Virus record (IMG/VR): IMGVR_UViG_2711768044_000004
Reading direction: 5' to 3' (one strand)
DNA length: 45,498 nucleotides
Source: a virus
Lineage: Duplodnaviria > Heunggongvirae > Uroviricota > Caudoviricetes
Position 1 is the stretch's first letter. Every line of letters begins with the position of its first letter. The notes below the pieces were generated by a model. That model worked only from the letters and a program-made list of their open reading frames with translations, was not told the origin of the DNA and ran no database searches. Shown piece by piece: positions 28,062 to 36,425 of the stretch. The position numbers and the translations under genes were made by a program.

Positions 28062-28138
28062 TGGCGCGTTGTACTGGATTCGAACCAGTGGCCGATTGCT
28101 TAGAAGGCAATTGCTCTGTCCGGCTGAGCTAACAACGC
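28062..28138 (-). tRNA. tRNA-Arg, anticodon UCU (reads AGA)
   Basis: Hand-folded cloverleaf: acceptor GCGTTGT, D-arm GCTC/GAGC, anticodon loop CTTCTAA, T-loop GGTTCGAATCC, 3' CCA. Confidence 0.75.
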
Positions 28139-28141
28139 TGA

Positions 28142-28218
28142 ATACCGATAATGGACCGCCATCGGGGACCCGCCCCCCGCGCAACCAGCTTCGAAGGCTG
28201 GCGCTCTGTCCTGATGAG
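28142..28218 (-). tRNA. tRNA-like gene, apparent anticodon UCG (Arg) with a non-canonical T-loop; possibly degenerate
   Basis: Acceptor CCGCCAT/ATGGCGG and D-arm and anticodon stems pair, but the T-arm is CGGGG-GGCGGGT-CCCCG rather than the usual TTCRANY loop. Confidence 0.45.
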
Positions 28219-28225
28219 CTAATGG

Positions 28226-28301
28226 CGGTATGTGATGGTGGCCCTTGCTGGATTTGAACCAGCGACCTGGCGATTATGAGTCGCTCGCTCTCACCACTGA
28301 G
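28226..28301 (-). tRNA. tRNA with CAU anticodon (Met or lysidine-modified Ile2 type)
   Basis: Hand-folded cloverleaf: acceptor GGCCCTT, anticodon loop CTCATAA, T-loop GGTTCAAATCC, 3' CCA. Confidence 0.75.
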
Positions 28302-28360
28302 CTAAAGGGCCGGGAGCAGAATAATAATGGTGCGTAATTAATTCTGCAATCTCATCCGTT

Positions 28361-33002: not shown

Positions 33003-33128
33003 ATAATCAAATTAGCGGGGCAAACAATGCCCCGCACCGTGCTACTTATCATCCCCAGCTGCAAATCGAATACACCACCAGTGCCACCGCCATTGCAATC
33101 CCTACCGTGGTGAATGCTTCAGGCCAGG

Positions 33129-33797
33129 TCATTGATTCACCTCCTGCGGCGGTTCTGGCAGTGGCATCCAGTGTGACGGTTTCCATGACGCCCCAGGAAT
33201 TAGCCACCCGTCATTAGCGTCAGGATGACCCGGGATGTAAGTCGCCCATTTCATTCGCCAGTCACCTTTCCCGTCAAGCTCGCGCGCAACAAGAACACCT
33301 GTTTTGCTATCCTGCATTCGCTCACTACAGCTTATCCAACCATCTTTGATGCCACTATCTTGACTCTGAAGCATAGCGGCGCGGCAGGCGTTCCAGCCTC
33401 TCACCTCTGCAATAGCGGCAACAGCATCGACCGCGTACATTTTAAGAGGGTTAGGCATTGGTTTTTCTTCAGGTACTACTGGCACAGGCGGGGAAGTGAA
33501 TAACGCCTGAATTTCATAGTTCGGCCTGTCGTTGCAATCCTCTTTTGTCGGTACATATTTCCAGTCACCAACCCACAGCTCCCCCTGAGAGTCCGTAACA
33601 CCTTTTTTCACGTAGCGATATCGCCACGCTATCGGCTCTTCTTCCAGCGATGCCAGCGCAATTTTAAATGCGGTAAGTACGTTTTTAACCTTACCGATTT
33701 CGAATGCTATTTCGCTACATACAAACGATGTATCGTCCATTATCGATTCAATTCCGGTAATCGTGTTCTGTAACCATTCTTTGGTTAATTCATTCAT
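33129..33797 (-). CDS. Hypothetical nin-region protein with a Trp-rich, Pro-rich C-terminus (possibly DUF551-like)
   Basis: 222 aa; family assignment is a guess from the C-terminal W...W...WMPLPEPP pattern. Confidence 0.45.
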   Translation of the reverse strand: MNELTKEWLQNTITGIESIMDDTSFVCSEIAFEIGKVKNVLTAFKIALASLEEEPIAWRYRYVKKGVTDSQGELWVGDWKYVPTKEDCNDRPNYEIQALFTSPPVPVVPEEKPMPNPLKMYAVDAVAAIAEVRGWNACRAAMLQSQDSGIKDGWISCSERMQDSKTGVLVARELDGKGDWRMKWATYIPGHPDANDGWLIPGASWKPSHWMPLPEPPQEVNQ

Positions 33798-33832
33798 TTT
33801 TCATTACCGCCCTTTCGGGCTGCCTCCAGACA

Positions 33833-34045
33833 TTAATCGTCGTAATAACTCATGGCTTCATTTGCAGCATCAACCGGATCAACCTCCCACCAGCAATAAT
33901 TTGGGTCGGTTCCTTCAAGTGTCCACGGTTCTAATTCATTTTTTGCCGCATTCTCGTCACCAGTAATTTTAAAAACCTGCTCAGAGAATTTTTTCACCCA
34001 CTCGTTATATTTTTCAGTGTTAATGGTTTTCTGAATATTTGACAT
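33833..34045 (-). CDS. Hypothetical 70-aa acidic protein
   Basis: ORF in the early-operon orientation; no recognised domain. Confidence 0.35.
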   Translation of the reverse strand: MSNIQKTINTEKYNEWVKKFSEQVFKITGDENAAKNELEPWTLEGTDPNYCWWEVDPVDAANEAMSYYDD

Positions 34046-34090
34046 AGATATTCATCCTGTTAAGTATTTTATTTTCGATAATAATATTGT

Positions 34091-34447
34091 TTATTCTGGC
34101 CTGGTTTTTGTCGCCCTGCGTATCCGCGCTTTCGCATTACGCTCAATCTGGATTAGCTTTTCTATATTTTTACGCCTTTCCCGTTCCTCCTGCCTCAATA
34201 GCTTTACATCATCCGCCAGTCTGGTTTCTCTTTTCGCCACAGAGAGCATCCAGTCAAATGGTTCCACCACCGCACCGCATATTTTGCACCGGACCTGACG
34301 CTCTTTTTCATCAACCCGGACAGAGGCGTGATGGCAGTATGGTCTTTCCGATGGCTCATAAATAAAATTAACCTGATTACGTGGGTCATCCTCTTTTACC
34401 GGAAATAAAACGATATTGCTTAACTCATCTTCTGGATTTATTTCCAC
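34091..34447 (-). CDS. Hypothetical protein with a Cys/His cluster and a coiled-coil tail (GTG start)
   Basis: GTG preceded by AAGGAG; start lies within a few bases of the stop of the upstream gene; C-HH...C-x-x-C motif. Confidence 0.4.
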   Translation of the reverse strand: MEINPEDELSNIVLFPVKEDDPRNQVNFIYEPSERPYCHHASVRVDEKERQVRCKICGAVVEPFDWMLSVAKRETRLADDVKLLRQEERERRKNIEKLIQIERNAKARIRRATKTRPE

Positions 34448-34448
34448 G

Positions 34449-35012
34449 TCACTCTCCTTTGATGCGAATGCCAGCGACGCGTGGCACATTAACTTCCACA
34501 ATGCGCACAGTTGGTTTGTACATCTCAATTGCTGTCAGCCAGTCAGCTCCTGTCATGCGCTTTTCTGCATCGCCATTAGTCCACTGAACCGGTACACCAA
34601 TAGCCTTCATCGCGATTTCTATTTCCCCGGCAATGGCGCTTTTTCCGCAACCAGTAAAACCAGATACAACGACAAGAACTTCGCCCTTGGCCGGTTTTAT
34701 TTCCCGCGCTTCCAGCTCTTTAACGCGCTCCTCGAGTTCGTAGACTCTGCATTGTTCTTTATCATCAATCAGATATAACCCAAGACATTCGCTTTCTACC
34801 CAGCCACCGAAATCATGATCGTAACGCTCACATGAAAACTCACCGTCGCTGTCCTTTGTTGGGATGGTGTAGCTATCTAATGGGCCACCATACGTCGGCA
34901 CATTTCCCAATGTCGGATGCTCAATCCACATGAAAAATGCACGTCCGGTTATAGGGCAAATATCTGGTCGCCATTGGTTACTCACTGTTTGCCTCCTGAA
35001 AAATAACTGCAT
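34449..35012 (-). CDS. Hypothetical protein with a Walker-A-like motif (GFTGCGKS) in its C-terminal third
   Basis: 187 aa; the nucleotide-binding domain, if real, looks too short to be complete. Confidence 0.45.
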   Translation of the reverse strand: MQLFFRRQTVSNQWRPDICPITGRAFFMWIEHPTLGNVPTYGGPLDSYTIPTKDSDGEFSCERYDHDFGGWVESECLGLYLIDDKEQCRVYELEERVKELEAREIKPAKGEVLVVVSGFTGCGKSAIAGEIEIAMKAIGVPVQWTNGDAEKRMTGADWLTAIEMYKPTVRIVEVNVPRVAGIRIKGE

Positions 35013-35277
35013 GCCCCAGCTTCTCCGCCAGCGCCAGTTCTGCCTTAGCGCCTGCTGACCGCTGCCAGCCTTTCAGCATGTAAATCGCATCAACACAACG
35101 AATCATTGCCATGCAAATATCCATGTAGTGTGGCTGTGTCAGCCCGTCCGGAAGTACTGCCGGGTTTAAGACTGTATGCCCTTCCCGTTTCAGTTCCTCT
35201 TCCGCCTTGTGGAACGCCTCACGGTTGAAATTTTTATACCCGGTCATTGGACCGGCAATATAAACTCTCACCCTCAC
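34978..35277 (-). CDS. Small Rossmann-like protein, possibly DUF4406 / nucleoside 2-deoxyribosyltransferase-like
   Basis: 99 aa beginning MRVRVYIAGPMTG...; family assignment from memory. Confidence 0.45.
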   Translation of the reverse strand: MRVRVYIAGPMTGYKNFNREAFHKAEEELKREGHTVLNPAVLPDGLTQPHYMDICMAMIRCVDAIYMLKGWQRSAGAKAELALAEKLGHAVIFQEANSE

Positions 35278-35711
35278 GCCATCACCTCCTGAAAATTACC
35301 CTGATAAAACGCCAGCACACGCTGCATAACTTCACTATTCCGGCACTCGCGACAGATTATGTTCAGGCGCCTGTCGTAGCGGCGTATTTCTCCGTCTGGT
35401 AATGACCAGATAAGGTCCGGATCAACCACAGCCGGTTTCTTCGCCTTTGCCCTTGAAAGTTTTTTGCGGGCGTTTTGCCAGTCTTTACGAGCCTGTTCAG
35501 ACGGAAATAACCCGTAGCCAGAGTTGTATACATCACCACTGGCAACCAGCTCTCTGGCGAGAACGCTCACCAGATATCTTGTTGCACCTGTTTTAGCTTC
35601 CAGTTGCCGTAACGTCTCGCGACCGCTCTGGCGTACGAGTTCAACAACCTGCCCCTTAATTTTTTCCCGCTCTTCTGGTGTAAATACTCTTGCCATCAGC
35701 GTCCCCTGCAA
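35274..35711 (-). CDS. Hypothetical protein
   Basis: 145-aa ORF overlapping its neighbours by 4 nt on both sides. Confidence 0.45.
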   Translation of the reverse strand: MQGTLMARVFTPEEREKIKGQVVELVRQSGRETLRQLEAKTGATRYLVSVLARELVASGDVYNSGYGLFPSEQARKDWQNARKKLSRAKAKKPAVVDPDLIWSLPDGEIRRYDRRLNIICRECRNSEVMQRVLAFYQGNFQEVMA

Positions 35712-36425
35712 TCACTTTTCTGATGCAACACAACAGGATGAATCAGTAATCTGTCGAACAATATCCTGGTGCTTGTTCAGCTCACGCAGCGCAGCACAGA
35801 CTCGCTCCCACTTCTGAACCTGACCTTTTGCCCGGCGCAGTTCGCGGTTAGCCACATGCAGCGATGGTAAAATCAGACTATCCGGATGCTTTCTGGTGAA
35901 CGACGGCTGTGACTGCACTGTGACCGCCACACTTTCAGTTTTAATTTCTTCCTGTGTTTCCGCTTCCCGGACTGGTAACGCAACACCTGCTGGCTGAGGA
36001 AAGGCTTTACCATCGGTTTCCGTTACCGATGCAGCTTTCAGCTCTGTCGGTAAATTATCGCCCGGTATGCAGTAACGATATTTACCGTCCTGATTAACGC
36101 GAATCAGACGACCTTTGCTGATTGCCATCGCCAGTGATGAATTCGCCCGGCGGGAGGTAATCCCGAACATTAACGCCAGTTCGTCAGCCGACTGAGGACC
36201 ATGCTGTTCAATCGCGTTAATCAGCATCTCTGCTGTGGTTTTTGGGACCGCTTCACTTGCCTCACTCGTCGGCCACCACATCGACCCCTTGTTATCAGCC
36301 TCACCACGACGCTTCAGCTTCCAGAGTTCGGTAACAGCATCGTCACGGCTGATTTCAAGACGGGCTGCAATCTCGTGCGACGAGGCTTTTTTCAGTGCTT
36401 TCAGTGCGTCAAAAACGGTTTCCAT
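35712..36425 (-). CDS. Hypothetical protein with winged-helix-like segments (start at the internal ATG)
   Basis: ATG with GGAGG ribosome-binding site 8 nt upstream; the longer ORF would start at GTG inside the upstream gene. Confidence 0.45.

Follow-up and report, generated by a model that had tools for sequence, protein, structure and literature searches.

Positions 34,091 to 35,277 of IMG/VR virus record IMGVR_UViG_2711768044_000004 (Caudoviricetes; the whole stretch of 45,498 nucleotides [nt] is referred to here as the window) carry three tightly packed genes on the minus strand, which encode a DUF4406 protein (gene 1), an Ea22-like protein with a Walker A motif (gene 2), and a putative zinc-ribbon protein (gene 3). 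The first-pass annotation of this stretch proposed that the trio forms a functional unit that might act on nucleotides or DNA, perhaps in modification or counter-defence. We consider it probable that the stretch is instead a mosaic, in which three accessory genes independent of one another lie in a row, and not a dedicated three-gene system. All three open reading frames (ORFs) were confirmed, as follows:

Gene 1: 35277..34978, minus strand; 99 amino acids (aa), GTG start; DUF4406 protein, RefSeq WP_001266136.1.
Gene 2: 35012..34449, minus strand; 187 aa from an ATG start in the RefSeq/Prokaryotic Genome Annotation Pipeline (PGAP) model; "headless" Ea22-like protein.
Gene 3: 34447..34091, minus strand; 118 aa, GTG start; predicted zinc-ribbon protein, PHROG 1621.

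Because homologues of each gene that are 45 to 70% identical exist in other genera, the three ORFs are real genes and not chance reading frames. For gene 2, the sequence makes a start at GTG 34985 more likely than the PGAP start at ATG 35012: this GTG lies 6 nt past a perfect AGGAGG (34997-34992), gives a protein of 178 aa, is the start ("MSNQWRPD...") used by the largest homologue cluster (P0001), and produces an 8-nt overlap (GTGAGTAA) between gene 2 and gene 1. The GTG of gene 3 is located 1 nt past the TGA of gene 2, with AAAGGAGAG directly before it, so that gene 3 abuts gene 2 without overlapping it; this start is backed by homologues from other genera that begin at the same position, many of them with ATG. 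Therefore, of the "three overlapping genes" first described, all are present and the third does begin within a few bases of the preceding stop, but it does not overlap, the second is more likely to be 178 than 187 aa long, and the coupled run includes a fourth gene (DUF977) upstream.

The argument for independence comes mainly from co-occurrence, for which 5,426 complete Escherichia coli genomes and 80 IMG/VR loci with the P-loop cassette of gene 2 (the ~70-aa segment that holds its Walker A motif) were sampled. Of the E. coli genomes, 1,220 had DUF4406, 355 had the P-loop cassette, and 1,679 had gene 3. The whole 1,187-bp trio was present in 75, and the trio copies inspected were 96 to 100% identical (97.5 to 99.9% for those listed among the E. 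coli genomes), which suggests one lineage. Gene 3 without DUF4406 was estimated from an evenly spaced listing to occur in ~950 E. coli records; in strain APEC O1, for example, DUF977 is followed by an annotated pseudogene remnant of the Ea22 tail and then by gene 3, with no DUF4406. In O157:H7 SS52, where gene 3 is missing, DUF4406 is accompanied by DUF4752, a hypothetical gene, and an Ea22-like gene. At the 80 viral loci, the P-loop cassette sits on a canonical Ead_Ea22 head in at least 50 cases; DUF4406 lies at most 1 kb upstream in 8, gene 3 lies directly downstream in 13, and both are present in 7. In prophages of Serratia, Yersinia, and Klebsiella, the gene 3 homologue follows RusA, NinG, NinH, or YbcO and precedes Q, and no DUF4406 or Ea22 was found near it. 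In Edwardsiella, Enterobacter, and Salmonella, the neighbours of DUF4406 are DNA methylases, Rv2179c-like exonucleases, DUF4752, or DUF1382, and the gene may lie in the early-left or in the early-right region.

Because the genes assort independently within E. coli, among viral contigs, and across other genera, a three-gene functional unit is not supported, and the co-occurrence across unrelated lineages that characterizes a conserved multi-gene system was not seen for the trio. The stop/start coupling, which had been the basis for proposing a unit, does not change this picture, since at other loci the same genes overlap or abut whichever neighbour they have, and coupling is thus uninformative about partnership. 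The trio would be co-transcribed and translationally coupled because the genes of this operon are packed in this way. A search with PADLOC, which covers defence systems and not anti-defence proteins, gave no matches, an NCBIfam search of the proteins gave nothing useful, and nothing was found that bears on DNA modification or counter-defence. Since the idea of a three-gene system does not stand, the stretch is not one to pursue as a candidate operon for modification or counter-defence.

The composition of gene 2 fits a mosaic origin. A homologue search with gene 2 returned 3,716 proteins, the named ones being mostly "ead/Ea22-like family protein" with PF13935, and Pfam gave no match to this Ead_Ea22 domain (PF13935) in gene 2 itself. 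In an alignment of 14 sequences, the first ~90 to 130 residues of the homologues have no counterpart in gene 2, which comprises a central module, a short coiled coil, a variable C-terminal part, and a conserved AGIRIKGE tail:

Central module: 34761..34973, minus strand; W14-D84, nearly all columns invariant in the 14 sequences, common to RefSeq "ead/Ea22-like family" proteins.
Coiled-coil linker: 34698..34760, minus strand; K85-I105, ...ELEERVKELEAREI, exchange point for C-terminal cassettes in the alignment.
P-loop cassette: 34479..34685, minus strand; G110-R178, ~70 aa, with GFTGCGKS at 34638-34661.
Ea22 tail and gene-boundary linker: 34449..34475, minus strand; GCTGGCATTCGCATCAAAGGAGAGTGA (AGIRIKGE and stop), in which the K-G-E codons are the Shine-Dalgarno sequence of gene 3.

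Ea22 has been described as a tetrameric, pro-lysogenic protein with an N-terminal segment, a coiled coil, and C-terminal domains that are unrelated between phages (PMC7093339, PMC10834534). The central module, coiled coil, variable C-terminus, and K-G-E end of gene 2 therefore correspond to the published Ea22 architecture minus its head, and gene 2 is, by sequence comparison, an Ea22-family scaffold that lacks the Ead_Ea22 head and carries an exchangeable C-terminal cassette. Headless proteins with the "MSNQWRPD" start are found repeatedly, their C-terminal cassettes being of three different kinds (P0001, P0018, and P0021), and the Salmonella protein P0005, 86% identical to gene 2, is likewise without the Ead_Ea22 domain. 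The AlphaFold2 model of the entire protein was too poor for use (mean predicted local distance difference test score [pLDDT] of 53); a helix was predicted at residues 77-94 of a 180-aa gene 2 query, and the model of the central module was of low confidence and beta-rich. In another Salmonella protein (P0013, 241 aa), the central Ea22-like module occurs twice in tandem, a further sign of cassette-level rearrangement. An apparent fusion of DUF4406 with gene 2 (P0017) was discounted, as a one-base frameshift in a short assembly accounts for it best.

The GFTGCGKS motif occupies residues 118-125 of gene 2 (34661..34638) and fits the Walker A pattern GxxxxGK[ST]. An exhaustive search with gene 2 residues 100-187 gave 445 cluster representatives, and the identity and architecture figures given here refer to the 150 of them that were listed. 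Among these, the ~70-aa module is at least 63% identical and is placed at the C-terminus, at the N-terminus, or centrally in otherwise unrelated proteins of 110 to 623 aa, bounded by linkers in more than 100 architectures; it is also present in Burkholderia phage BcepC6B gp37 (69% identity) and in Yersinia phage fHe-Yen8-01. In 112 relatives, no variation is seen in G, T, G, K, and S of the loop, and the G at the sixth position is at least 90% conserved; conservation extends to E31, E33, W45, E51, K52, T55, D58, Y66, and P68 (numbering of the 88-aa segment) and to a glutamate that ends the last strand. On these alignments, the Walker A motif of gene 2 is a genuine P-loop element, which agrees with the first reading, and it is under strong selection. 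In a set of many multi-module proteins (P0316-P0387), the module is 63 to 70% identical, and several of the proteins have their modules joined by Pro/Ala/Gln-rich linkers; Pfam recognised none of the partner modules in proteins of this type.

A complete P-loop NTPase is an alpha/beta domain with a core of five strands or more and typically at least ~150 aa. For the ~70-aa module, neither a five-stranded core nor a family profile or fold of a complete NTPase was found. Gene 2 scores 13.9 to 16 bits against the APS_kinase family of Pfam (cutoff, 21.1), over profile positions 3-40 of 152, and the N-terminal part of this profile is matched at an E value of ≤0.1 by 18 of 19 module sequences (best E value, 4.8e-5). 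A PDB profile search with the module produced sub-threshold matches only, confined to a strand, P-loop, and helix segment; the proteins matched in this weak manner were gluconate, shikimate, and APS kinases, UvrA, ArsA, the designed "phosphate-loop protein" 6c2u, and the de novo ATPase 9jix. Modelled alone with AlphaFold2 (pLDDT, 79.8; predicted template modelling score, 0.68), the module shows two helices and no paired strands, and a fold search with this model found no significant structural neighbour among solved folds. With regard to a Walker B motif (hhhhD/E, on a strand beside that of the P-loop), an invariant glutamate ends the last strand (V-R-I-V-E173), and the four residues before it are not all hydrophobic. 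In sequence, the module resembles the initial third of a P-loop kinase. However, its ~70-aa length, the sub-threshold profiles, and the lack of a fold match place the motif outside a complete or recognisable NTPase fold, an outcome that the first-pass annotation had named as counting against its reading; the motif lies in a fragment-sized module instead.

How should such a module be understood? The cassette would be a fragment of a unit like that of P-loop kinases (beta, P-loop, alpha, beta, alpha, beta); it would most likely bind a phosphate-bearing ligand, and binding would probably need an oligomer that the coiled coil holds together. Alternatively, the cassette could be a non-binding structural or dimerising Ea22 C-terminal domain that contacts a host protein, with the Walker A motif kept for its fold. 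The small size of the module, the missing canonical Walker B, lid, and substrate-binding region, and the absence of any significant structure or sequence match to an NTPase all agree with this alternative, as do the loop variants GCAKS (P0004) and GSDKS (P0382) and the observation that the lambda Ea22 C-terminal domain (CTD) is dimeric and on its own fails to reproduce the pro-lysogenic effect (PMC10834534). The conservation of the loop in 112 representatives and the presence of the module at 69% identity in a Burkholderia phage record are nevertheless a pattern typical of a working phosphate-binding loop, and the match of 18 of 19 members to the APS_kinase N-terminal profile points in the same direction; we therefore regard a purely structural role as unlikely, although it deserves to be kept in mind. 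The mini P-loop module would also be an inexpensive test case for how far a P-loop unit can shrink and still function.

Gene 1 is the most clearly assigned member of the trio. It matches Pfam PF14359 (DUF4406) with 129.6 bits (cutoff, 22; E value, 6e-38), residues 4-93 aligning to positions 2-91 of the 91-position profile, and PF14359 is also matched by all 28 aligned homologues. In PHROG, it falls with family 355, annotated "nucleoside 2-deoxyribosyltransferase" (E value, 5e-48), whereas against PF05014 (Nuc_deoxyrib_tr) it reaches 13.9 bits, under the cutoff of 28.8, and one of the 28 homologues reaches an E value of 5e-4. Weak cross-matches of gene 1 to DUF1937, DUF7768, and Nuc_deoxyrib_tr thus tie it to true deoxyribosyltransferases at the superfamily level only. 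Y6, G9, P10, D53, S74, G76, and E80 are among the residues invariant across the 28 homologues, and the conserved patterns are Y-x-A-G-P at the N-terminus and S-x-G-x-x-x-E near the C-terminus. These resemble what we take to be the phosphate-/hydroxyl-binding and catalytic-glutamate positions of nucleoside deoxyribosyltransferases (NDT) and DNPH1, whose superfamily has its catalytic Glu nucleophile in a (D/S)-x-G-x-x-x-E motif; this likeness is one of motif patterns and serves as a lead only. No solved relative was found by PDB sequence or profile search, and a literature search on DUF4406, or on NDT-like proteins in anti-defence, returned nothing relevant. Overall, the sequence is clear in making gene 1 an enzyme-like DUF4406 member of the NDT/DNPH1-like superfamily, for which the earlier "Rossmann-like" was a fair if loose label, this superfamily being alpha/beta and nucleotide- or nucleoside-related. 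The protein would probably bind a (deoxy)nucleotide or cleave its N-glycosidic bond.

Gene 3 belongs to PHROG 1621 (E value, 5e-55), a small family of 150 clusters at 90% identity whose named members are all from Enterobacterales. The Cys/His cluster noticed in the first reading consists of C38, H39, H40, C54, and C57 (C38/H40/C54/C57 at 34277-34336), and C38-x-H40 and C54-x-x-C57 are invariant in 20 gene 3 sequences, which suggests a zinc ribbon; the score against the TFIIB-type zinc ribbon PF08271 is 21.5 bits, below the cutoff of 29. A C-terminal basic helix, LRxEExxRRxNIEKLIQIERNAKARIRR (L84-R110; 34118-34198), is conserved even better than the Cys/His ligands. PDB sequence and profile searches found no solved relative. 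The zinc ribbon and basic helix would bind nucleic acid or protein. In two homologues, P0128 and P0129, two different Ead_Ea22 heads with their coiled coils are fused at ELEAREIKP to the gene 3 module, and gene 3 therefore serves also as an Ea22 C-terminal cassette. Elsewhere, gene 3 takes either of two forms, a stand-alone nin gene next to Q or a cassette on an Ea22 scaffold.

With the three proteins described, the view of the trio as one unit acting on nucleotides or DNA can be weighed directly. In such a unit, DUF4406 would be the catalytic N-glycosidase or transferase, the P-loop module a partner that is kinase-like or binds nucleotide, and the zinc ribbon the part that binds DNA or the target. 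Several observations are compatible with it: (i) the stop/start coupling between the genes, (ii) the membership of gene 1 in an NDT-like family, (iii) the near-invariant Walker A motif, (iv) the presence of the trio in 75 E. coli genomes and at 7 of 80 viral loci, and (v) a natural fusion, P0321 (330 aa), of a DUF4406 domain (residues 143-234; E value, 1e-18) with the P-loop module (253-321). Together with two further observations, this fusion weighs against full independence of the parts: the central module is found repeatedly with the P-loop module, in both orders, and a commoner arrangement in E. coli, estimated from the evenly spaced listing at ~700 records, is DUF4406, a different Ea22-like gene, and gene 3. 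These three observations leave room for a functional link between parts.

However, the same coupling joins the trio genes to unrelated neighbours, each gene occurs much more often without the other two than with them, no neighbours are shared by the distant homologues of genes 1 and 3, the near-identity of the inspected trio copies suggests a single lineage, and PADLOC and NCBIfam returned nothing relevant. P0321 itself is a single case, the only DUF4406/P-loop fusion among ~165 module-bearing proteins compared, and belongs to a polyprotein family that joins many unrelated modules; it is found on four metagenomic phage contigs (including L103 5001-5993 and L104 916-1908), where it is part of a long series of small phage early genes that overlap. 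Taken together, a functional unit appears quite improbable, the small chance that it retains being due mainly to the P0321 fusion. A more specific idea, that the cassette is a natural minimal P-loop, able to bind nucleotide or phosphate only once the Ea22 coiled coil oligomerises it, and that it cooperates with DUF4406, as the P0321 fusion hints, in processing a nucleotide (perhaps a host immune signal or a deoxynucleoside monophosphate), is to be given very little credence on the sequences compared here; if it were true, the P-loop/DUF4406 pair would be a phage tool for counter-defence or for the nucleotide pool. Also hard to credit is a functionless gene 2, decaying from an Ea22-like gene that lost its 5' half when recombination placed DUF4406 beside it, which would suit the missing Ead_Ea22 domain and the annotated pseudogene in APEC O1, where a remnant of this tail lies upstream of gene 3, but not the intact ORF with a perfect AGGAGG before GTG 34985, the recurrence of "MSNQWRPD" proteins with three cassettes, or the equally headless Salmonella P0005.

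Under the preferred reading of a mosaic run, the cassettes would be swapped at short conserved linkers, namely the EIKP repeat and the AGIRIKGE/Shine-Dalgarno boundary. The first of these is part of a 12-nt direct repeat, GGAAATAAA(A/T)CC, which has two copies in the window, 259 nt apart, where none is expected:

Repeat copy 1: 34693..34704, minus strand; GGAAATAAAACC (E-I-K-P), at the coiled-coil/cassette junction, the 5' edge of the P-loop cassette.
Repeat copy 2: 34434..34445, minus strand; GGAAATAAATCC (E-I-N-P), at the start of gene 3.

Between the two copies lie the P-loop cassette, the tail, and the stop codon, and a deletion of this stretch is predicted to give an in-frame fusion of gene 2 with gene 3 (...ELEAREI(K/N)PEDELSN...), as found in P0128 and P0129. 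The second linker is shared with lambda: the last 27 nt of gene 2 are identical to the 3' end of lambda ea22 (L022 345-371), and 325 phage records contain this tail junction, which typically spans a boundary between "Ea22" and "hypothetical protein". The common K/RGE end of Ea22 proteins has been reported, its significance being called unknown (PMC7093339). At the locus studied here, gene 3 has its Shine-Dalgarno sequence in the K-G-E codons (AAA GGA GAG), and in four other loci an ORF begins 1 to 4 nt past the stop of the Ea22-like gene. As a universal ribosome-binding site, the motif was rejected, because in lambda no ORF starts just downstream of ea22; the ribosome-binding account of the K/RGE end is therefore a partial explanation only, and the motif may be no less a linker at module boundaries than a site of ribosome binding. 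A conserved linker whose K-G-E codons act as the ribosome-binding site of the next gene would nonetheless offer a testable, non-protein explanation for this end.

A 222-aa protein encoded two genes downstream of gene 3 (33129-33797, minus strand) ends in a DUF551 domain. DUF551 is reported to be the C-terminal domain in Ea22 variant V2 of Shiga toxin (Stx) phage (PMC10834534), so that the P-loop cassette, the zinc ribbon, and DUF551 are each Ea22 cargo elsewhere.

The trio belongs to the early-right operon of a lambdoid prophage of E. coli, with the replication genes on one side and the hokD/DUF968/RusA/Q block on the other. A 1,951-base query (33800-35750) is 99.8% identical to a prophage stretch in E. 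coli M1 and M3, and the gene order was read from this prophage record, the rest of the window being mapped by coordinates without alignment. In this prophage, the order is integrase, exonuclease, dicB/ydfABC, relBE, repressor/YdaT, replisome organiser, DnaC-like loader, DUF1627, DUF977, DUF4406, gene 2, gene 3, a 70-aa ORF, DUF551, hokD, DUF968, RusA, Q, transfer RNAs (tRNAs), lysis genes, and head and tail genes; the early region matches Rac-type phage records. Since the trio is placed between the replication genes and Q, it is at the positional equivalent of the lambda nin region, in agreement with the "nin-region" label it was first given. The tightly packed run itself comprises four genes (DUF977, DUF4406, Ea22-like, and zinc-ribbon) with flanking gaps of 15 to 45 nt, the first of them being the following:

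DUF977 (LygF / "Ren-like") gene: 35274..35711, minus strand; directly upstream of gene 1, in the same packed run.

The GTG of gene 1 overlaps the stop of this gene by 4 nt (GTGA). A promoter and terminator scan inside the run gave no signal above chance level. Directly past the DUF551 gene, on the minus strand at 33015-33035, there is a strong terminator-like hairpin with an 8-bp stem (7 G-C pairs) and a T-rich tail; going downstream from the replication genes on the same strand, it is the first of its kind. Farther downstream, past the Q region, ARAGORN placed three tRNA genes (Arg-TCT, Arg-TCG, and a CAT-anticodon tRNA) at 28062-28311 of the window (minus strand). In RefSeq, the matching M3 cluster is Gly, Arg, and Ile, with coordinates shifted by ~100 nt, and the window is therefore not identical to M3 over its full length.

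The families of all three proteins are already catalogued, with DUF4406 in Pfam, Ea22-like proteins in RefSeq, and PHROGs 1621, 11761, and 250, and Ea22 mosaicism is published. The modest additions are the mini P-loop cassette, gene 3 as an Ea22 cassette, and the reading of the K/RGE tail as a ribosome-binding site and linker. The words "Walker" and "ATP" are absent from the 2020 Ea22 paper (PMC7093339), and "P-loop" and "kinase" are absent from the 2024 nuclear magnetic resonance paper on Ea22 (PMC10834534). Among the closest known systems is Ea22 of lambda and Stx phages (PF13935/IPR025153). Gene 2 resembles it in having (i) the same central module as RefSeq "ead/Ea22-like family" proteins, (ii) a coiled coil followed by an exchangeable C-terminal cassette, and (iii) the K-G-E end, encoded by the same 27 nt as in lambda ea22; in most phages, the P-loop cassette sits on a canonical Ead_Ea22 head. 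In contrast, gene 2 is without this N-terminal domain, and it is located in the early-right operon between the replication genes and Q, whereas Ea22 is located in the exo-xis (early-left) region. As its C-terminal cassette has no PDB sequence match, nothing ties it to the solved lambda CTD.

The module within gene 2 shares with P-loop kinases of the APS-kinase type a unit of beta-strand, GxxGxGKS, helix, and beta-strand but differs from them in having no lid, substrate-binding part, or canonical Walker B. A comparison with the "P-loop prototype" mini-proteins made in the laboratory may also be apt, given the weak profile likeness of the module to the designed 6c2u and 9jix. Gene 1 is similar to the NDT/DNPH1 superfamily through its full-length, high-scoring DUF4406 match and its weak Nuc_deoxyrib_tr cross-match, whereas proteins of that superfamily are ~160 aa long and gene 1, at 99 aa, is sub-threshold for PF05014. 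Gene 3, finally, is a member of the PHROG 1621 nin-region genes, whose Serratia, Yersinia, and Klebsiella homologues lie between RusA/NinG/NinH/YbcO and Q; in E. coli the setting differs, as gene 3 usually follows an Ea22-like gene and is sometimes fused to the Ea22 scaffold.

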